IMG/VR virus record: IMGVR_UViG_2740892421_000017
Span: 1 to 13,004 of that record
DNA length: 13,004 bases
Direction: 5' to 3' (one strand)
Source: a virus
Taxonomy: Duplodnaviria > Heunggongvirae > Uroviricota > Caudoviricetes
Every line of letters starts with the position of its first letter. The stretch's first letter is position 1. Both the position numbers and the translations under genes were made by a program. Under the pieces are notes generated by a model. It was not told the origin of the DNA, did no database searches, and saw only the letters and a list, made by a program, of their open reading frames with translations. Below are positions 1 through 13,004 of the stretch, in pieces.

Positions 1-10
1 TTTAATGCCT

Positions 11-43
11 CTTAAATTAAAAGGCCGCCATGGGATAGCGGCC
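11..43 (-). terminator. Putative rho-independent terminator/attenuator downstream of yehD
   Basis: Inverted repeat ggccgc(23-28)...gcggcc(38-43); on the minus strand it is followed by a T-run (complement of cttaaattaaaa at 11-22). Sits just 3' of the yehD stop (80-82). Confidence 0.4.
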
Positions 44-79
44 ATGTTTATTACCTGGAGAAACTTACAATTTTATTTA

Positions 80-622
80 TTAATCCTGCGCCACACGCAT
101 AACCAGAGAAGATAACACATCACCTGATTGCACTGAGTTATCTGTCAGTTTCAGGTATTTTGCTTTAAACGGAATAGCATATTGACCTTCCGCTGTTTTA
201 TAACTCTCAATGTTAAAAGGTGCAGAAACATCCAGGACATCGCTGTTATCACCTAAATAGAGATAGTAACCCACGGTATCGTTGCTACTGGCTATCGCCT
301 TATCGTTACCGGTTATTTTATCGTTGGTAATCAACGAGAGTTTTACACCAGCAACTTCTTTCGGGCAGCTAATTTTTAACATGCTGCTGGTTACACCGAC
401 TGCATCATCATAGGTAGAATATTTAGCTTTACCTTCAAAGACAGTGGTTGGTACAGTCGGCATATTAATACTTACTGAATCACCACCCGCTTCGAATTTA
501 CACGGAGATTCTGCAATATTCCCCTTAATAGTTAATGTTCCGGTATCAACGTCTGCAGCAAATACTCCAGCGCTCATAAAAAAAGAAGAAAAGACAGCGG
601 CAGCAATAATTGAACGTTTCAT
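80..622 (-). CDS. yehD: Fimbrial-like (type 1 pilin family) subunit, 180 aa, with N-terminal signal peptide
   Basis: ORF 80..622 (-). N-terminus MKRSIIAAAVFSSFFMSAGVFAADV is a typical Sec signal peptide; the rest resembles fimbrial major subunits. Sequence and gene order (yehD-yehE-mrp-metG) match the E. coli K-12 yeh locus as I recall it. Confidence 0.85.
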   Translation of the reverse strand: MKRSIIAAAVFSSFFMSAGVFAADVDTGTLTIKGNIAESPCKFEAGGDSVSINMPTVPTTVFEGKAKYSTYDDAVGVTSSMLKISCPKEVAGVKLSLITNDKITGNDKAIASSNDTVGYYLYLGDNSDVLDVSAPFNIESYKTAEGQYAIPFKAKYLKLTDNSVQSGDVLSSLVMRVAQD

Positions 623-846
623 AATATGTTCCTTAATAAAATTTATTTTTGGTTGTTAAGAGTCTGTATCTCTTGGAAACAAATTTCTCACATCAAAAAA
701 GTTGCCGCAATGTAAACACATTGTTTTATTGATTTAAAACAAATTAACCATTGCAATATAAATACAACAAATATTTAAGAGTATTAACTATTTATCGCAT
801 CTATCAATTAATGTAGATTTATGTAAATGGTATTGTTGATATCAAT
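623..846. promoter_or_regulatory. AT-rich intergenic region upstream of yehD (probable fimbrial operon promoter/regulatory region)
   Basis: About 220 bp of strongly AT-rich sequence directly upstream of the yehD start on the minus strand. No specific -10/-35 assigned. Confidence 0.35.
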
Positions 847-885
847 AAAAAAGCCGAAATCATTTATATAAATGATTTCGGCTTT
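847..885 (-). terminator. Rho-independent terminator downstream of yehE (bidirectional-capable)
   Basis: Perfect 30-bp palindrome gccgaaatcatttatataaatgatttcggc (853-882), flanked by an A-run (847-852, giving a U-run on the minus strand) and ttt (883-885). Confidence 0.6.
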
Positions 886-914
886 CTAAATGCAATTAAA
901 ATCAGGTTGCCAAA

Positions 915-1196
915 TTAATCGTAGCGATTTAACACGATTCGACGTTTGCTATCGCTACCTGCAACAACCACTTCTGTCGTTACACCTTTGACGGGCGAAG
1001 AAAACAGATGACGGGTGTCAACATTATACGTTAACTGACCACAATGCTGTTGAGGTTGACCATTAACCATAGCCATACTGCATGTTGGGGGACTGATCCT
1101 GCCATTAATCGCTAATGTGGCAGTCTCTGAAGAGAACGCGGGAGAAGCCAATCCATAGGCAAGAAAAATAATTCCTGACAGCCAATACTTATTCAT
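915..1196 (-). CDS. yehE: Small secreted protein of unknown function (YehE-like, DUF2574-type), 93 aa
   Basis: ORF 915..1196 (-) begins MNKYWLSGIIFLAYGLASPAFS (signal peptide). Position between yehD and mrp matches E. coli K-12 synteny. Confidence 0.75.
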   Translation of the reverse strand: MNKYWLSGIIFLAYGLASPAFSSETATLAINGRISPPTCSMAMVNGQPQQHCGQLTYNVDTRHLFSSPVKGVTTEVVVAGSDSKRRIVLNRYD

Positions 1197-1384
1197 TGAA
1201 CGTTATCCCTGTAGTAAAGGTTATGCCTGGATAGAATGAGTGCATAACAAACTATAGCTGTACATCCACTACACAGCCACGAAGGATGATAATGAAGCAT
1301 TGCCTGTACGATCAATCGACTTTGTAGAGTTTCGGACGAAGGTCCGCAGAATATTCGCAGTATTAAATAAGTGTTCATTAATGC

Positions 1385-1428
1385 GGCAAAAACAAATACA
1401 CCGCATCAATATAACATCTCTGCGGTGT
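1385..1428 (-). terminator. Rho-independent terminator of mrp (copy 1)
   Basis: Hairpin acaccgca(1398-1405)...tgcggtgt(1421-1428); on the minus strand it is followed by atttgtttttgcc (complement of 1385-1397). Lies about 30 nt 3' of the mrp stop at 1459-1461. Confidence 0.55.
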
Positions 1429-1458
1429 ATGAAGAATAACCAGAATGGTTAATAGGCG

Positions 1459-2568
1459 TTAGACCGCGCGGAAGGAAATCTCGCCTGGAATGACTTCACC
1501 CTGCCAGTAGAGCTGAGCTGCAACGCGGTCAGCCAGCTGGCGGTAGATAGCGGTAAATTCGCTCTCCGGACGGCTGATAACCGTTGGCGTGCCTTTATCG
1601 AGATCCTCACGTAAGGAGATGTGTAACGGCATCTGCCCCAGCAGCTGTGTGTGGTATTTTTCAGCCAGTTTCTCAGCACCACCGGTACCGAAAATCGGTT
1701 CATGGTGACCACAGTTACTGCAAATATGCACACTCATGTTCTCGACAATACCAAGCACCGGAACCTCGACTTTCTCGAACATCACAATGCCTTTTTTCGC
1801 ATCGATCAACGCGATGTCCTGCGGGGTGGTGACCACGACTGCACCAGTTACTGGAATGTTTTGCGCCAGCGTCAATTGAATGTCACCGGTGCCTGGCGGC
1901 ATATCAAGCACCAGATAGTCGAGATCCGGCCACAAGGTTTCCTGCAACATCTGCATTAACGCCTTGCTCGCCATCGGTCCACGCCACACCATCGCATTGT
2001 CGTCAGTGACCAGATAACCAATTGAATTGGTTGCCAGGCCATGAGACATAATCGGTGCCATATGGGTACCGTCCGGCGAAGTTGGACGCTGATTTTCTGC
2101 GCCCAGCATGGTGGGAATTGATGGGCCGTAGATATCGGCGTCCAGAATGCCGACTTTCGCCCCTTCCGCCGCCAGTGCCAGCGCCAGGTTTACCGCCGTG
2201 GAGGATTTACCCACGCCGCCTTTACCGGAACTGACCGCAATGATGTTCTTCACACCATTAATACCCGGCTGATTCTTCACGCGTTTTAAGGTGGCGATAT
2301 TGTGCGACAGTTTCCAGTCGATAGCTTTCGCCCCGGTGATACGCAGCAGTTCGGCGCTACATTGCTCTTTTAACTCTTCAAACGCGCTATGCCAGACGAA
2401 TGGCATAACCAGTTCCACATGCAACGTGTCGTCCATCCAGGCGACATGGTGCAACGCTTTCAGCGTGGTGAGGTTATGCTTCAGGGTTGGGTGCTGAAAA
2501 TTGGCCAGTGTCCCGGCGACCATTGCGCGCAAGGCTTCTGGTGATTTGGCCTGGGATTGTTCGTTCAT
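1459..2568 (-). CDS. mrp: Mrp/ApbC family iron-sulfur cluster carrier ATPase, 369 aa (copy 1)
   Basis: Translation from the MNEQSQAKSPEALRAMVAGT start contains the deviant Walker A/P-loop SSGKGGVGKSS and the CSNCGH cysteine motif, as in E. coli Mrp/ApbC. GGAG Shine-Dalgarno lies upstream of the ATG at 2566-2568. The ORF-track start at 2598 (MVYLYKKGVG...) was rejected as an upstream extension. Confidence 0.95.
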   Translation of the reverse strand: MNEQSQAKSPEALRAMVAGTLANFQHPTLKHNLTTLKALHHVAWMDDTLHVELVMPFVWHSAFEELKEQCSAELLRITGAKAIDWKLSHNIATLKRVKNQPGINGVKNIIAVSSGKGGVGKSSTAVNLALALAAEGAKVGILDADIYGPSIPTMLGAENQRPTSPDGTHMAPIMSHGLATNSIGYLVTDDNAMVWRGPMASKALMQMLQETLWPDLDYLVLDMPPGTGDIQLTLAQNIPVTGAVVVTTPQDIALIDAKKGIVMFEKVEVPVLGIVENMSVHICSNCGHHEPIFGTGGAEKLAEKYHTQLLGQMPLHISLREDLDKGTPTVISRPESEFTAIYRQLADRVAAQLYWQGEVIPGEISFRAV

Positions 2569-2699
2569 CCCGACTCCTTTTTTGTATAAATAAACCATCA
2601 GCTGATAGTTTACCTGAAGAATATAGAGAAGTACTTACTTAACATTTTCCCATTTGGTACTATCTAACCCCTTTTCACTATTAAGAAGTAATGCCTACT
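2569..2699. promoter_or_regulatory. Divergent mrp/metG promoter region (copy 1)
   Basis: 131-bp AT-rich intergenic region between the divergently transcribed mrp and metG starts. Confidence 0.4.
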
Positions 2700-3621
2700 A
2701 TGACTCAAGTCGCGAAGAAAATTCTGGTGACGTGCGCACTGCCGTACGCTAACGGCTCAATCCACCTCGGCCATATGCTGGAGCACATCCAGGCTGATGT
2801 CTGGGTCCGTTACCAGCGAATGCGCGGCCACGAGGTCAACTTCATCTGCGCCGACGATGCCCACGGTACACCGATCATGCTGAAAGCTCAGCAGCTTGGT
2901 ATCACCCCGGAGCAGATGATTGGCGAAATGAGTCAGGAGCATCAGACTGATTTCGCAGGCTTTAACATCAGCTATGACAACTATCACTCGACGCACAGCG
3001 AAGAGAACCGCCAGTTGTCAGAACTTATCTACTCTCGCCTGAAAGAAAACGGTTTTATTAAAAACCGCACCATCTCTCAGCTGTACGATCCGGAAAAAGG
3101 CATGTTCCTGCCGGACCGTTTTGTGAAAGGCACCTGCCCGAAATGTAAATCCCCGGATCAATACGGCGATAACTGCGAAGTCTGCGGCGCGACCTACAGC
3201 CCGACTGAACTGATCGAGCCGAAATCGGTGGTTTCTGGCGCTACGCCGGTAATGCGTGATTCTGAACACTTCTTCTTTGATCTGCCCTCTTTCAGCGAAA
3301 TGTTGCAGGCATGGACCCGCAGCGGTGCGTTGCAGGAGCAGGTGGCAAATAAAATGCAGGAGTGGTTTGAATCTGGCCTGCAACAGTGGGATATCTCCCG
3401 CGACGCCCCTTACTTCGGTTTTGAAATTCCGAACGCGCCGGGCAAATATTTCTACGTCTGGCTGGACGCACCGATTGGCTACATGGGTTCTTTCAAGAAT
3501 CTGTGCGACAAGCGCGGCGACAGCGTAAGCTTCGATGAATACTGGAAGAAAGACTCCACCGCCGAGCTGTACCACTTCATCGGTAAAGATATTGTTTACT
3601 TCCACAGCCTGTTCTGGCCTG
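2700..3621 (+). CDS. metG: Methionyl-tRNA synthetase, 5' fragment (first ~307 codons), cut off by the N-run
   Basis: Translation [31 protein letters not shown]... carries the class I aaRS HIGH-type motif ([11 protein letters not shown]) and is co-linear with the full-length copy at 10747..12780 as far as ...YFHSLFWP. Sequence after the N-run is unrelated to metG. Confidence 0.9.
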
Positions 3622-3631
3622 NNNNNNNNNN
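3622..3631. other. Run of 10 N: assembly gap / scaffold junction
   Basis: Ten consecutive n characters in the sequence; flanking sequence is unrelated on the two sides (metG on the left, unknown ORF on the right). Confidence 0.95.
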
Positions 3632-6604: not shown

Positions 6605-7257
6605 TGACCACCGTTAACAATAAGAAATGCTACCCAAGCGAGAAATATCTTAATGAGCTGATCACCAACATTGAGTTTGCTGCAAGAGCACCAGTTGAAG
6701 TCGTGAGAGCGATTGCAGCAGAGCTACAGAAGCACCGTAAGGCCTATGCCAATACAGCCGCATCTAAGGATGGTTGGATAAGCTGTAGTGAGCGAATGCC
6801 TGTAATTGGCGAGCTAAATTGGAGAACTAGTTTTCCTTTACTGGTTACGTGTGAGATCGGCGTTATACCTGCTTATTACGGCTTTGTGAGCGTTAATGGT
6901 GATAGGCATTATGGCTTTATGGAGAGTCTTAAATACGGAGACGCTAACGGCAACCATCCTCAAACTAATGAATATGGTCTGATTAGCAATGTCACACACT
7001 GGATGCCACTACCAGAACGCCGCAGGAGTCGAACAGTGAATAATGCAGAGTTATTTCAGAAAATATCGGCTCTCGCGACTGAATGCCACGCTATAGCATC
7101 TGAGCTTGATGTTGGCGATGAACGAACCGAGATGTTCGAAATATACAGTGTGCTGCGCAATCTCTGTCGGCGTGGCTACGCCACTCAAGTAGGGCGAATG
7201 ACTAACCCACTACTCTCATCCTGTGATGAGGATGACTCGGATGAGGATGACGAATGA
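6604..7257 (+). CDS. DUF551-like phage protein with acidic C-terminal tail, 217 aa
   Basis: Segment DGWISCSERMP...THWMPLPERR resembles the conserved core of the DUF551 family common in lambdoid prophage early regions (from memory). C-terminus is SSCDEDDSDEDDE. Confidence 0.6.
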   Translation: MTTVNNKKCYPSEKYLNELITNIEFAARAPVEVVRAIAAELQKHRKAYANTAASKDGWISCSERMPVIGELNWRTSFPLLVTCEIGVIPAYYGFVSVNGDRHYGFMESLKYGDANGNHPQTNEYGLISNVTHWMPLPERRRSRTVNNAELFQKISALATECHAIASELDVGDERTEMFEIYSVLRNLCRRGYATQVGRMTNPLLSSCDEDDSDEDDE

Positions 7258-7637
7258 TGCATAAATCAGTAGCCGGTGAGTTTCAGAAGGAAGTCGATAA
7301 TACCACTGATCTATTGGACGATATTTTAAGCATTCTCGCGCTGCTTGAGGCTGGCGATTGGTCAGAACATTGCACTAAAACAGAGCTAGGCGGTCGGCTT
7401 GAAAGAGAGATTACACGACTGATTAGCGATGCCCAAAATGATTTGTCACCTGAGCATCTCCCCTGCGATGTAGTTCTTGTGCCAGGGATGAGGATACACG
7501 AAGGCGTCAGAACGAAAACATTATTAACCGCATTACAGAGAAGAGCCGAACTAAGCTCGCGGATAAAGTTGATGCCATCCAAAATATTTGATGTCGTCAA
7601 ATTTACGCCATCGCAACATACTGAGAGAGATAAATGA
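7254..7637 (+). CDS. Hypothetical protein, 127 aa
   Basis: ORF whose start overlaps the upstream stop (ATGATG) and whose stop overlaps the next start (ATGA). Confidence 0.55.
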   Translation: MMHKSVAGEFQKEVDNTTDLLDDILSILALLEAGDWSEHCTKTELGGRLEREITRLISDAQNDLSPEHLPCDVVLVPGMRIHEGVRTKTLLTALQRRAELSSRIKLMPSKIFDVVKFTPSQHTERDK

Positions 7638-8260
7638 GCACGGTAGCGAAAGATCTCACAGAAGATATTCTCAATAAAATTATTGCTGGTGCAAATACCT
7701 CGCTTGAGCAACTTCTTGCGTTAGCACTGAGAGCCGAACGTCGAGACAGAAATCGTTTTTATGAGCGATTACCAGGGAAGCGACCAGATAGATCGGATGA
7801 AGAAGGTTGCGATATAGACTACATGGAGCCTTCAGAGATTTATCAACTTGGTAAAGATGACGGCTGGAACGCTTATCACGATGCTGTGATGAAGTTGGAT
7901 GAAAAAGTTAAACCTCTTTCTCGACCGGTAGATCACGGTTTCCGCGATAACTGCGAATGCTCTAGTTGCCAGACCACGGCCCGTATTTGTTCCGAATTGA
8001 CAGATAAGTCCAGCCTAATCTACGAAGTTAATGTAGGCGGTAATACATGGGTCGAATGCACAAGAGCTGCATACGTAAGAGCAAAAGACAAGGGTGAATT
8101 AACCAGAGTTGTTACCAATCACCCAAATAATGAGCTTAAAGATCACCAGATTCGAGAACTGGTGAACGAGTTGAGAGATATTGCGGTTCAGTACCACGGA
8201 ACGCAGCAATTGCGGGAGAAGATTGCCAGAGCAGTGAACAACTCAGTCCGTAAAAAATAA
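7634..8260 (+). CDS. Hypothetical protein with cysteine cluster (CxCxxC-x6-C), 208 aa
   Basis: Last gene of the coupled chain. Motif DNCECSSCQTTARICSE suggests a small metal-binding knuckle. Followed by a hairpin at 8278-8302. Confidence 0.6.
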   Translation: MSTVAKDLTEDILNKIIAGANTSLEQLLALALRAERRDRNRFYERLPGKRPDRSDEEGCDIDYMEPSEIYQLGKDDGWNAYHDAVMKLDEKVKPLSRPVDHGFRDNCECSSCQTTARICSELTDKSSLIYEVNVGGNTWVECTRAAYVRAKDKGELTRVVTNHPNNELKDHQIRELVNELRDIAVQYHGTQQLREKIARAVNNSVRKK

Positions 8261-8277
8261 GCAATAGTACGATAAAG

Positions 8278-8302
8278 AGGCCCCATGCTCTTGATGGGGC
8301 CT
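8278..8302. terminator. Putative transcription-terminating hairpin after the operon
   Basis: 9-bp stem aggccccat(8278-8286)/atggggcct(8294-8302) with a 7-nt loop. No clear U-tract on the plus strand, so a rho-independent call is tentative. Confidence 0.35.
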
Positions 8303-8369
8303 GTAGCAACTAGCGTTATGGACGCTGGTTTACGTACTCAATGATCGCTTTGATAATCGCGAACATCGG

Positions 8370-8665
8370 CGGCACGATTTTGAACAGTAAGTTAACCATA
8401 ACAGGCCTCACTTAGTTTTATCGCGCCTAGCTGCAAATACCTTTGGGCTTGCCTTTGCAGTTGCAATATCTGTAGTCGCCAGATACTTACGGCACGATTT
8501 CGAGTTAAGGTAAGGTTTTAGAGTCACCAAAAACCTGGACTTAAATCTTCTTTGAGAACAACGATGTTTAGTAAATGGTCATTATTACCTGGTATGACCA
8601 CTCAACCTTTCTTGATGAATCCAGTACATTCGGTTAATCTTAATTCAGTCGCCAGATACTTATGG
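8370..8665. repeat. Mosaic short direct repeats in a noncoding region
   Basis: Repeat Y, agtcgccagatactta[c/t]gg, at 8474-8492 and 8647-8665. Repeat X, cggcacgattt[t/c]ga, at 8370-8383 and 8490-8503. The first Y copy abuts the second X copy (Y+X composite at 8474-8503). Confidence 0.6.
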
Positions 8666-8671
8666 CTCAGG

Positions 8672-8730
8672 AACAGAGCCGCAAACTCTGTTTCCTTTTA
8701 AAAAGCCCAGCCTAGTCAACTGGGCTTTTT
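8672..8730 (+). terminator. Tandem rho-independent terminators (second one bidirectional-capable)
   Basis: Hairpin aacagag(8673-8679)-ccgcaaa-ctctgtt(8687-8693) followed by tccttttaaaaa; then hairpin agcccag(8704-8710)-cctagtcaa-ctgggct(8720-8726) followed by ttttt (8726-8730) and preceded by an A-run. Confidence 0.6.
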
Positions 8731-9025
8731 AATGTCTATTTTTAACCCAACATACCCTCAATACTGCAACATCAGTGTCTTGCGAATTAAGATAGTGTGA
8801 ATAGATTTTTCATGCAAGTGCATAAGCCTGTGGATAACTCAGGAAGGAAAAAGTGACTTCTGCGCACTTTAGACCGGACAAGGCGTTCGAAAAAGTCAAT
8901 GGGAAGAAAAAATTTGTTAAAAATAACGTTTGTTTGAATTGTATATATTTATGCCTTTCAATAGTTAGCATCTTATTAACATCTTTTTTAAGAGATAGAG
9001 TTCAAAAATATATAGCTTCAATATA

Positions 9026-9045
9026 TACTGTATGTGTATACAGTA
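9026..9045. promoter_or_regulatory. LexA (SOS) box overlapping the putative promoter of the UmuD'-like gene
   Basis: TACTGTATGTGTATACAGTA, a palindromic CTGT-N8-ACAG element matching the E. coli LexA consensus TACTGT(AT)4ACAGTA. Plausible -35 ttcaaa (9001-9006) and -10 tatact (9024-9029); box ends 16 nt before the ATG at 9062. Confidence 0.75.
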
Positions 9046-9061
9046 TTAAGAGGCGAGTATT

Positions 9062-9451
9062 ATGGGCTTCCCTTCTCCTGCGGCGGATTATGCTGAGAGC
9101 CGTATTTCTCTTGATCAGCAGATAATTAGACATCCTTCAGCGACCTACTTCATGAGGGCAGCTGATAGTCATCATCGTGAGGGAATATTACAGGGTGCAT
9201 TGCTGGTGGTCGATTCCTCACTTACCCCGGTTGATGGTTCTCTGCTTGTATGCGCTCTGGATGGGGAATATCGCGTAAAAAGATACCGGAAGTACCCACG
9301 TCAGCATCTGGAGGATTTAAGAACCGGTAAGAAGGAAGCATTGCCAAAGGATGACGATGGATGCACGGGCAGCAATGCCGTGTTTGGTGTGATCACTCAC
9401 ATTATCAACGACGCAAGAAGTGGCGAGTTTGATGATTGTCCCGTGATGTAG
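9062..9451 (+). CDS. UmuD'-like protein (peptidase S24 / LexA C-terminal-domain fold), naturally lacking the N-terminal arm, 129 aa
   Basis: Begins [30 protein letters not shown], aligning with E. coli UmuD from Gly25 onward (...VQC/[29 protein letters not shown]...). In-frame TAA at 9047-9049 excludes an N-terminal extension. AAGAGG Shine-Dalgarno at 9048-9053. Ser/Lys dyad region retained but altered (AADSHH, RVKRY). Confidence 0.75.
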   Translation: [129 protein letters not shown]

Positions 9452-9463
9452 GAGAACTGATTA

Positions 9464-9487
9464 GGCGGTGCAATGCACCGCCTTTTT
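9464..9487. terminator. Bidirectional terminator between the convergent UmuD'-like gene and mrp (copy 2)
   Basis: Stem ggcggtg(9464-9470)/caccgcc(9476-9482) with loop caatg, followed by ttttt (9483-9487); immediately adjacent to the mrp stop codon (9489-9491). Confidence 0.6.
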
Positions 9488-9488
9488 A

Positions 9489-10589
9489 TCACACTGCGCG
9501 GAATGCGATTTCGCCAGGTATTACTTCACCTTGCCAATACATTTGGGCAGCAACGCGATCTGCGAGGTCACGATAAATAGCCGTAAATTCACTATCTGGA
9601 CGACTAATAACGGTTGGTGTTCCGTTATCCAGATCTTCACGAAGAGAGATATGAAGTGGCATTTGGCCTAACAACTGCGTGTTGTATTTCTCGGCCAGTT
9701 TCTCTGCGCCACCGGTGCCAAAAATTGGCTCGTGATGACCGCAGTTACTGCAAATATGCACACTCATGTTTTCGACGATACCAAGTACCGGCACTTCGAC
9801 TTTTTCGAACATCACAATGCCTTTCTTCGCATCGATCAGCGCGATGTCTTGCGGCGTAGTTACCACAACAGCACCAGTTACAGGAATGTTCTGCGCCAGC
9901 GTCAACTGAATATCACCAGTGCCCGGCGGCATATCGAGAACAAGATAGTCCAGATCAGGCCACAATGTTTCCTGCAACATCTGCATTAACGCCTTGCTCG
10001 CCATCGGTCCACGCCACACCATTGCATTGTCGTCGGTGACCAGATAACCAATAGAGTTGGTTGCCAGGCCATGAGACATGATAGGTGCCATGTGAGTACC
10101 GTCAGGTGAGGTTGGACGTTGGTTTTCCGCGCCCAGCATGGTTGGAATTGATGGACCATAGATATCGGCATCCAAAATACCAACTTTCGCACCTTCAGCA
10201 GCCAACGCCAGTGCCAGGTTTACCGCCGTGGAGGATTTACCCACGCCGCCCTTGCCTGAGCTGACGGCGATAATGTTCTTAACGCCATTAATGCCTGGTT
10301 GGTTTTTGACGCGCTTAAGCGTGGCAATGTTGTACGACAGCTTCCAGTCAATAGCCTTTGCGCCAGTGATACGGAGCAGATCACCACTACATTGCTCTTT
10401 CAGGTCTTCAAAAGGCTTATTCCACACGAAAGGCATGATTAGTTCGACATGCAGTGTGTCATCCATCAACGCAACATGGTGTAACGCTTTAAGCGTAGTC
10501 AGGTTGTGTTTCAGGGTTGGGTGCTGAAAATTAGCCAGCGTACCGGCTACCATTGCTCTCAGGGCATCCGGCGATTTGGACTCGCTCAT
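9489..10589 (-). CDS. mrp: Mrp/ApbC family iron-sulfur cluster carrier ATPase, 366 aa (copy 2, diverged ortholog)
   Basis: Translation MSESKSPDALRAMVAGT... with P-loop SSGKGGVGKSS and CSNCGH motif; co-linear with copy 1 but with about 20 amino-acid differences. GGAG Shine-Dalgarno upstream. Confidence 0.95.
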   Translation of the reverse strand: MSESKSPDALRAMVAGTLANFQHPTLKHNLTTLKALHHVALMDDTLHVELIMPFVWNKPFEDLKEQCSGDLLRITGAKAIDWKLSYNIATLKRVKNQPGINGVKNIIAVSSGKGGVGKSSTAVNLALALAAEGAKVGILDADIYGPSIPTMLGAENQRPTSPDGTHMAPIMSHGLATNSIGYLVTDDNAMVWRGPMASKALMQMLQETLWPDLDYLVLDMPPGTGDIQLTLAQNIPVTGAVVVTTPQDIALIDAKKGIVMFEKVEVPVLGIVENMSVHICSNCGHHEPIFGTGGAEKLAEKYNTQLLGQMPLHISLREDLDNGTPTVISRPDSEFTAIYRDLADRVAAQMYWQGEVIPGEIAFRAV

Positions 10590-10746
10590 CCCGTCTCCTT
10601 TATTTTAATTTGCGCAATTGTCGCCTTGTAGTGTACTCCAGCTACGACATTTAATCATTTATGAGAAATGCTGTTATCACATGGCAGACATAAGGCCATT
10701 TTGTTACTATCAAGCCCCTTTTCACTACAAAGAAGTAATGCCTACT
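10590..10746. promoter_or_regulatory. Divergent mrp/metG promoter region (copy 2)
   Basis: 157-bp intergenic region between divergent mrp and metG starts; sequence differs from copy 1 except near the metG start. Confidence 0.4.
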
Positions 10747-12780
10747 ATGACCCAAGTCGCGAAGAAAATTCTGGTGACGTGCGCGCTGCCGTACGCTAAC
10801 GGCTCAATCCACCTCGGCCATATGCTGGAGCACATCCAGGCTGATGTCTGGGTTCGTTACCAGCGAATGCGCGGCCACGAGGTTAATTTCATCTGTGCCG
10901 ACGATGCCCACGGTACGCCGATCATGCTGAAAGCACAGCAGCTTGGTATCACACCGGAGCAGATGATTGGCGAAATGAGTCAGGAACACCAGACTGATTT
11001 CGCAGGCTTTAACATCAGCTATGACAACTATCACTCGACGCACAGCGAAGAGAACCGTCAGTTGTCTGAGCTTATCTATACTCGCCTGAAAGAGAACGGT
11101 TTTATTAAAAACCGCACTATCTCTCAGTTGTACGACCCGGAAAAAGGCATGTTCCTGCCGGATCGTTTTGTAAAAGGCACCTGCCCGAAATGTAAAGCGC
11201 CAGATCAATACGGCGATAACTGTGAAGTCTGCGGCGCAACATATAGCCCGACTGAATTGATCGAGCCGAAATCGGTGGTTTCTGGCGCTACCCCGGTAAT
11301 GCGTGATTCCGAACACTTCTTCTTTGATCTGCCTTCTTTCAGCGAAATGTTGCAGGCATGGACCCGCAGCGGCGCGTTGCAGGAGCAGGTGGCGAACAAA
11401 ATGCAGGAATGGTTTGAATCCGGCCTGCAACAGTGGGATATCTCCCGAGATGCGCCCTACTTCGGTTTTGAAATTCCGAACGCGCCGGGCAAATATTTCT
11501 ACGTCTGGCTGGACGCGCCGATTGGCTACATGGGTTCCTTCAAGAATCTGTGCGACAAGCGCGGCGATACCACCAGCTTCGATGAATACTGGAAGAAAGA
11601 CTCCACCGCCGAGCTGTACCACTTCATCGGTAAAGATATTGTTTACTTCCACAGCCTGTTCTGGCCTGCCATGCTGGAAGGCAGCAACTTCCGCAAGCCG
11701 ACCAACCTGTTTGTTCATGGCTATGTGACGGTGAACGGCGCGAAGATGTCCAAGTCTCGCGGCACCTTTATTAAAGCCAGCACCTGGCTGAATCATTTTG
11801 ACGCTGACAGCCTGCGTTACTACTACACTGCGAAACTCTCTTCGCGCATTGATGATATCGATCTCAACCTGGAGGATTTCGTTCAGCGTGTGAATGCCGA
11901 TATCGTGAATAAAGTGGTTAACCTGGCCTCCCGCAACGCAGGCTTTATCAACAAGCGTTTTGACGGTGTGCTGGCAAGCGAGCTGGCTGACCCTGAGCTG
12001 TACAAAACCTTTACCGATGCCGCTGAAGTGATTGGTGAAGCGTGGGAAAGCCGTGAATTTGGTAAAGCAGTGCGCGAAATCATGGCACTGGCTGACCTGG
12101 CTAACCGCTATGTCGACGAGCAGGCTCCGTGGGTAGTCGCAAAACAGGAAGGTCGCGATGCTGACCTGCAGGCGATTTGCTCAATGGGCATCAACCTGTT
12201 CCGCGTGCTGATGACTTACCTGAAGCCGGTACTGCCGAAACTGACCGAGCGTGCAGAAGCCTTCCTCAATACGGAACTGACCTGGGATGGTATCCAGCAA
12301 CCGCTGCTGGACCACAAAGTGAATCCGTTCAAGGCACTGTATAACCGCATCGATATGAAGCAGGTTGAAGCACTGGTGGAAGCGTCTAAAGAAGAAGTGA
12401 AAGCAGCTGCCGCGCCAGTTACTGGCCCACTGGCAGATGATCCGATTCAGGAAACCATCACCTTTGACGACTTCGCCAAAGTTGACCTGCGCGTAGCGCT
12501 GATCGAAAACGCAGAGTTTGTTGAAGGTTCTGACAAACTGCTGCGCCTGACACTGGATCTCGGCGGTGAAAAACGCAATGTCTTCTCCGGTATTCGTTCT
12601 GCCTACCCGGATCCGCAGGCACTGATTGGTCGTCACACCATTATGGTGGCTAACCTGGCACCACGTAAAATGCGCTTTGGAATCTCCGAAGGCATGGTGA
12701 TGGCTGCCGGTCCAGGCGGGAAAGATATCTTCCTGCTAAGCCCGGATGCTGGTGCTAAACCGGGTCATCAGGTGAAATAA
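10747..12780 (+). CDS. metG: Methionyl-tRNA synthetase, complete, 677 aa
   Basis: Translation from [26 protein letters not shown] contains the HIGH-type motif and KMSKS (GAKMSKSRG) and ends ...[10 protein letters not shown], matching E. coli MetG length and sequence as I recall it. The ORF-track start at 10618 is an upstream extension and was rejected. Confidence 0.95.
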
Positions 12781-12790
12781 TCCCCCTTCA

Positions 12791-12819
12791 AGGCGCTGCA
12801 TCGACAGCGCCTTTTCTTT
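12791..12819 (+). terminator. Rho-independent terminator of metG
   Basis: Stem aggcgctg(12791-12798)/cagcgcct(12805-12812) with loop catcga, followed by tttcttt (12813-12819). Confidence 0.7.
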
Positions 12820-12920
12820 ATAAATTCCTAAAGTTGTTTTCTTGCGATTTTGTCTCTCTCTAACCCGCATAAATACTGGTAGCATCTGCATTCAACTGGA
12901 TAAAATTACAGGGATGCAGA

Positions 12921-13004
12921 ATGAGACACTTTATCTATCAGGACGAAAAATCACATAAATTCTGGGCGGTGGAGCAACAGGGAAACGAGTTGCATATCAG
13001 TTGG
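12921..13004 (+). CDS. molR: WGR-domain protein (MolR-like), first 28 codons only; continues past window end
   Basis: ATG at 12921; translation MRHFIYQDEKSHKFWAVEQQGNELHISW resembles the N-terminus of the E. coli gene downstream of metG (molR/yehH region), from memory. Confidence 0.55.
   Translation, partial: MRHFIYQDEKSHKFWAVEQQGNELHISW

Follow-up and report, generated by a model that had tools for sequence, protein, structure and literature searches.

A humD orthologue preceded by a LexA operator in an Escherichia coli phage-plasmid, and its predicted role as a ready-made UmuD′ surrogate

A short locus at positions 9001–9487 of a 13,004-nucleotide stretch of viral DNA (hereafter the window, meaning the whole stretch that was analyzed) raises the question of what a UmuD-like protein does when it is encoded with neither a cleavable N-terminal arm nor a neighboring umuC. 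A sequence-only reading had described the locus as an SOS-controlled orphan gene for a pre-truncated UmuD′ mimic that could act with host UmuC or as a decoy; its coordinates and sequence details for this region proved correct on re-reading. Our analysis indicates that the locus is very probably humD, derepressed in the SOS response and encoding a ready UmuD′ surrogate that pairs with host UmuC. The observed basis of this assignment comprises family membership, a truncated start, a conserved operator, a missing umuC partner, and purifying selection.

The locus forms a compact one-gene unit on the plus strand, in which a promoter-like site, a LexA box, a ribosome-binding site, an open reading frame, and a terminator follow one another within 9001–9487. 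The features are as follows.

9001–9029, plus strand: putative sigma-70 promoter-like site with −35 TTCAAA (9001–9006), a 17-nt spacer, and −10 TATACT (9024–9029); match to the consensus only
9026–9045, no strand assigned: predicted LexA operator (SOS box) TACTGTATGTGTATACAGTA, two mismatches to the palindromic consensus
9048–9053, plus strand: putative ribosome-binding site AAGAGG, read from the sequence, 8 nt before the ATG and overlapping the TAA at 9047–9049
9062–9451, plus strand: humD coding sequence, ATG start, 129 aa, stop TAG at 9449–9451
9407–9448, plus strand: codons for the HumD-specific C-terminal segment (aa 116–129)
9463–9491, plus strand: predicted intrinsic terminator, a hairpin at 9463–9483 whose 9-bp stem has seven G-C pairs, with a T run after it

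Promoter hexamers such as those at 9001–9029 matched twice in the region, compared with 2.3 matches expected by chance; the promoter-like sequence was unchanged save for one base among six related copies, and the last four bases of its −10 hexamer are common to the LexA box. The in-frame TAA is followed by four sense codons (GAG GCG AGT ATT) and then by the ATG at 9062. Since this stop is the fifth codon upstream of the start, a longer form of the protein is impossible, as had been claimed. The terminator separates humD from convergent apbC (9489–10589, minus strand), whose stop lies at 9489.

Over residues 1–129 of 129, the product scored 219.8 bits (cut-off, 120) with NF051876, the equivalog model of NCBIfam for HumD ("HumD family translesion DNA polymerase"), and it matched Pfam Peptidase_S24 with an E-value of 1.6e-9. 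The UmuD subfamily model NF007621 gave 87 bits, below its cut-off of 110, and the LexA model TIGR00498 gave 27.2 bits (cut-off, 110.95), with residues 4–78 aligned to profile positions 91–166, in the C-terminal domain only. The best matches among solved structures were UmuD′ (1umu; E-value, 6.7e-23) and full-length UmuD (8gmt_B), and the profile search and alignment proposed earlier thus placed the protein within the S24/UmuD family. In tblastn searches against phage genomes, it was 100% identical to its counterpart in Escherichia phage Cyrano, 91.5–93% identical to HumD of P1, RCS47, D6, and SJ46, and 64–71% identical to N15 gp26, phiKO2 gp23, and the "UmuD-like" proteins of HK639/HK140. It was also identical (100%) to RefSeq WP_000506720.1, which is annotated either as "HumD family translesion DNA polymerase" or as "S24 family peptidase". 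Given the full-length NF051876 match, the identity to the P1 group, and the RefSeq naming, the window gene is, by its sequence, a HumD orthologue that was already known and named, and the term "orphan gene" does not apply. The earlier comparison with P1 HumD was apt, but P1 HumD is more than a precedent for a mimic, as the two proteins are true orthologues at this level of identity. As a gene, the locus therefore has little discovery value: HumD has been known since 1999, a curated family model exists, and the exact protein is in RefSeq.

A protein-database search returned 561 homologues, and many of the best 120 were named HumD. Of these best 120, 100 fell within 126–130 aa (58 had precisely 129 aa), and 105 began with MGFPSPA. 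In databases, many HumD homologues go by "S24 family peptidase" or by "LexA family transcriptional regulator". Even the curated "HumD family translesion DNA polymerase" is a loose name, since HumD serves as an accessory subunit and is no polymerase. At the DNA level, the 801 bases around humD were 99–100% identical in dozens of plasmids of approximately 110 kb from complete E. coli genomes. Plasmid pSTEC409_1, complete at 110,902 bp, was 100% identical to the window across 8700–9500 and 97% identical across 6760–12780. The carrier is an E. coli phage-plasmid of approximately 110 kb, of the Cyrano/pSTEC409_1 type and apparently of the SSU5 group.

The protein begins M-G-F-P-S-P-A. Its Gly2 pairs with Gly25 of UmuD (8gmt_B) and with residue 1 of UmuD′ (1umu_A) and is the equivalent of the first UmuD′ residue, in agreement with the claim that the product starts just after the UmuD cleavage site Cys24/Gly25. 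With E. coli UmuD′ (PDB ID: 1UMU and 1I4V), the protein has in common the fold family and the N-terminal residue after processing; the two are approximately 44% identical over the domain, and both keep the last beta strand and Lys97. E. coli UmuD, in contrast, is a 139-aa precursor that undergoes RecA-stimulated cleavage at Cys24/Gly25, is co-transcribed with umuC, has kept its GDSM motif intact, and does not carry the acidic tail at its C-terminus.

We compared eight stand-alone phage homologues, from P1, Cyrano, phiKO2, N15, HK639, Enterobacter phage MII_001, Hafnia phage yong1, and Aeromonas phage pAEv1818, of which those of yong1 and pAEv1818 were only 46–49% identical to the window protein. 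None of the eight possessed a cleavable N-terminal arm, and none had an adjacent umuC. Seven started with M/V-GFPSPA, and the pAEv1818 protein started with MGMPKFASPA. The umuD genes located beside umuC in E. coli K-12, phage Oslo, and Klebsiella phage ST846 encode full-length precursors with a Cys-Gly site and an intact GDSM motif.

The closest characterized relative is HumD of P1 (AAQ14181), described as a shorter UmuD in already activated form (PMC7092418) and annotated in GenBank with the note "functionally complements E. coli UmuD′". Both proteins have 129 aa and are 91.5% identical, with the same start and C-terminal tail, and both genes lie just downstream of a LexA box and have no umuC. 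The window gene differs from that of P1 in residing on another phage-plasmid backbone (Cyrano/pSTEC409_1 type), in being flanked downstream by apbC-metG rather than phd-doc and upstream by a non-coding stretch of approximately 800 bp rather than the divergent lxr, and in the spacer sequence of its operator. DNA homology between the window and P1 extends from about the LexA box to the stop codon, and the mobile unit therefore appears to be the operator together with the gene. N15 gp26, phiKO2 gp23, and the HK639/HK140 proteins, at 64–71% identity, likewise combine a LexA box, a truncated start, an EFDDCPV[ML] tail, and a stand-alone gene, whereas they have Thr at the position of Ser60 and lie near tail-fibre, partition, or integrase genes. 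McLenigan and co-workers (1999; J Bacteriol 181:7005) are reported to have shown complementation by P1 HumD. In the P1 study, HumD is said to have been poorly expressed and to have complemented well only from a high-copy plasmid, which makes the natural contribution of HumD to mutagenesis uncertain.

Next, we focused on the LexA operator. TACTGTATGTGTATACAGTA was the sole site in the window within three mismatches of the LexA consensus, and no such site arose in 200 shuffles. The sequence-only reading had placed a near-consensus LexA box at 9026–9045 over a putative −10 region; the position of the box was exact, and the overlapping −10 element is a match to the consensus only. A CTG-N10-CAG box with two to four consensus mismatches was found 14–44 nt before the start codon in all eight stand-alone phage homologues, and the GenBank records of P1 and phiKO2 annotate it as a LexA-binding site. 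The description of humD as a LexA-regulated SOS gene (PMC9603915) is in line with these sites. Among near-identical copies of the locus, operator variation was mostly confined to the central spacer (GTGT, GCAT, or ATATAC) while CTGT...ACAG was kept; in one or two copies, the third base from the 3′ end of the operator was also changed (CAGTA to CAGCA). Judged by its sequence, this variation pattern is that expected for a LexA site under constraint. The distance from the box to the ATG was 16 nt in the window, compared with 19 nt for P1 humD and 19 nt for E. coli umuD. From this similar spacing, we infer that humD may have originated from umuD by in-frame loss of codons 2–24, with the native control region kept; the spacing is consistent with such an origin.

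A minus-strand promoter-like site within 9020–9049 (TTAATA, 18-nt spacer, TATATT) also lies under the LexA box. Such double promoter coverage recalls the divergent LexA-controlled genes P1 lxr and the dinI-like gp22 of phiKO2. The sole candidate for a divergent gene in the window, a minus-strand open reading frame at 8971–8810 (53 aa), had no ribosome-binding site, and the changes in it among relatives were mostly non-synonymous; from its sequence, it is probably not a gene. Across the 110.9 kb of pSTEC409_1, only two LexA boxes with up to five mismatches were present, that of humD and TACTGTTTACTTATACAGTA at 2175–2194, which has three mismatches and precedes a frameshifted gene for a tyrosine recombinase by 27 nt.

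The C-terminal third of the protein was said to diverge from UmuD. This description fits residues 77–105, which are variable relative to UmuD, but not the regions that follow: the last beta strand is kept (VFGVITHII compared with VFGVVIHVV in UmuD), and a family-specific tail is conserved. The window protein ends in GEFDDCPVM, its segment aa 116–129 was nearly invariant among 46 aligned homologues, and the last 10 residues of this segment run past the C-terminus of UmuD. The terminus [DE][FWY]DD.P.. was present in 108 of the best 120 of the 561 homologues, and the extension was absent from the three full-length UmuD proteins encoded beside umuC. The conserved tail thus co-occurs with N-terminal truncation and umuC loss, and it is the only feature that a simple UmuD′ surrogate model leaves unexplained. 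Its [DE]FDD lies in the same register from the C-terminus as in the tip of E. coli SSB (...MDFDDDIPF-COOH), a post-hoc motif match that might reflect mimicry of the SSB tip, with the tail docking HumD or a HumD–UmuC complex on SSB-tip readers or competing with SSB; we consider this improbable. A literature search for the SSB C-terminal tip together with UmuD returned nothing on a HumD tail. Were such mimicry real, the UmuD′ homologues encoded by stand-alone phage genes would have an ability that cellular UmuD′ lacks.

These features of the tail also bear on an alternative in which HumD is mainly a modulator or decoy, titrating UmuC, UmuD, or RecA filaments, or docking through its tail on SSB-interacting proteins, so that host replication and repair would be slowed or redirected to the benefit of the phage. 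The near-invariant acidic-hydrophobic tail, with [DE]FDD spaced as in the SSB tip (...DFDDDIPF-COOH), and its absence from UmuD proteins encoded beside umuC speak for such a role, and the DnaE and RecA of the phage-plasmid itself would be possible alternative partners. The SSB resemblance is, however, a post-hoc motif match, and P1 HumD, which is 92% identical and carries the same tail, is recorded, in its GenBank note and in PMC7092418, as complementing UmuD′, a positive activity. The decoy role raised in the sequence-only reading found no support and runs counter to this record, and we regard a mainly modulatory function as unlikely compared with action as a UmuD′ surrogate.

We also examined the active-site region. 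The sequence-only reading had described an altered Ser/Lys active site (ASGDSM to AADSHH). The GDSM motif is indeed broken in the window protein, reading AA-DSHH, one residue shorter and with Met replaced by His, but the dyad itself is nominally retained: with a one-residue gap, both HMMER and MAFFT aligned Ser36 with Ser60 of UmuD and Lys73 with Lys97. The enterobacterial HumDs had Ser or Thr at the Ser position, and the Lys was invariant in 46 sequences; in more distant members, Tyr or Gln stood in place of Ser, and Met or Arg in place of Lys. On alignment, this drift of the catalytic dyad is what is expected once self-cleavage is no longer required. AlphaFold2 prediction on the 46-sequence alignment yielded a mean pLDDT of 51.8 and a pTM of 0.44, too poor for judging Ser–Lys geometry or tail disorder or for a fold search. 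Going by some database names, the protein would be an S24 peptidase active in self-cleavage or a regulator of the LexA/CI type, and both the Pfam Peptidase_S24 match and the alignment of Ser36 and Lys73 with the UmuD catalytic dyad are compatible with these names. The whole protein nevertheless corresponds to the C-terminal domain and so has no DNA-binding domain; it starts beyond the region of the cleavage site, which is accordingly absent; other family members have Thr, Tyr, or Gln for Ser and Met or Arg for Lys; and the LexA model scored approximately 27 bits compared with a cut-off of approximately 111. A peptidase or regulator is thus highly improbable.

The absence of a umuC partner from the window, noted earlier, was borne out: tblastn with K-12 UmuC gave a best E-value of 3.2 in the window, and the downstream gene is the convergent apbC. 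The same query gave a best E-value of 0.92 in the complete pSTEC409_1, and no Y-family polymerase was present among the 128 annotated features of this plasmid. The umuDC operon is normally present in E. coli. Since pSTEC409_1 has neither a UmuC homologue nor a Y-family polymerase, the polymerase partner of HumD would have to be host UmuC. The dN/dS relative to P1 humD was 0.05 (Nei–Gojobori; 43.8 synonymous and 12.2 non-synonymous differences), and by this measure humD is under strong purifying selection. A functionless, decaying umuDC remnant that has lost its 5′ end and umuC would account for the missing N-terminal arm, GDSM motif, and umuC neighbor, but is effectively refuted, with hardly any probability left to it, by this dN/dS, by the lengths and MGFPSPA starts counted above among the best 120 of 561 homologues, by the conserved operator, ribosome-binding site, and terminator, and by the recurrence of the same architecture in unrelated phage backbones.

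The genomic context of humD was composite. Positions 1–3621 of the window represent E. coli chromosome, carrying a yehD-like fimbrial gene, then mrp/apbC, and then metG up to its nucleotide 930; 3622–3631 are ten Ns; and 3632 to about 11,000 is phage-plasmid DNA encoding ea22/eaa-type genes with no assigned function, humD, the plasmid apbC, and the start of metG. This second metG is a hybrid, being identical to the plasmid for approximately 400 nt, then showing 10–25 differences per 250 nt, and becoming chromosome-like from about 11,010. The last 224 bases after the metG stop (12781–13004) are chromosomal and occur in 5424 of 5426 E. coli genomes. Either the phage-plasmid integrated in a Campbell-type event, through homologous recombination inside metG, or the draft assembly is chimeric, and the sequence pattern fits both; the same metG junction was not found in any complete E. 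coli genome of the collection. The phage-plasmid carries full-length apbC and metG, window 9489–12780 corresponding to pSTEC409_1 46491–49782. Its apbC and metG share approximately 83% and 94–95% DNA identity, respectively, with the chromosomal copies in the same window, which gives the element approximately 2 kb that is homologous to the chromosome of its host.

The humD module also occurs in a chromosome. In E. coli strain EC17CM6, the stretch at 10993–13190 contains the same two upstream genes, the intergenic region, and humD for an identical protein (WP_000506720.1), and the module adjoins the integrase and excisionase genes of a lambdoid prophage that lies at tRNA-Thr, close to proA. Lambdoid prophages and Cyrano/pSTEC409_1-type phage-plasmids therefore exchange this module. 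Elsewhere in pSTEC409_1 (7887–15454 and 25704–32375), we found genes for DnaE, RecA, NrdAB, thymidylate synthase, DfrA51, and DNA ligase as well as several tRNAs, and HumD may meet the phage-encoded RecA and Pol III alpha besides the host versions. DfrA51 ties the element to the SSU5 group (PMC12217456).

The stretch of approximately 800 bp upstream of humD (8262–9061) was never annotated and was 90–100% conserved in 120 E. coli records, with an almost invariant core at 8412–8711. The 20-nt sequence AGTCGCCAGATACTTAYGGC is directly repeated in it, at 8474 and at 8647. The stretch also holds a bidirectional terminator at 8709–8726 and a promoter-like site at 8329–8357, and its fold z-score was −2.5. 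An Rfam scan of 8200–9520 produced sub-threshold matches only, the best being AgrB-like at 8652–8733 with 27.6 bits compared with a gathering score of 40. A small RNA or small protein may be encoded here.

Based on these data and on the P1 orthologue, we propose the following course of events for humD as a supplier of ready UmuD′. In an unstressed cell, host LexA would occupy the operator at 9026–9045, over the −10 element, and keep the gene off. DNA damage would activate RecA and lead to self-cleavage of LexA, whereupon humD would be transcribed as a single-gene message ending at the hairpin 9463–9483. Removal of Met before Gly would leave the same N-terminus as that of UmuD′ (Gly25), and HumD would thereby bypass the slow RecA-dependent cleavage that usually delays UmuD activation. 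A HumD dimer would then join host UmuC in a Pol V-like translesion polymerase. In this scheme, LexA repression, dimerization, binding to UmuC and RecA filaments, and UmuD′ complementation are carried over by analogy from the P1 orthologue. The outcome would be higher damage tolerance and increased mutagenesis of both host and phage DNA during the SOS response. The cassette of operator and truncated gene is common to at least four kinds of temperate phage, namely P1-like, Cyrano/pSTEC409_1-type (SSU5-group), N15-like, and lambdoid.
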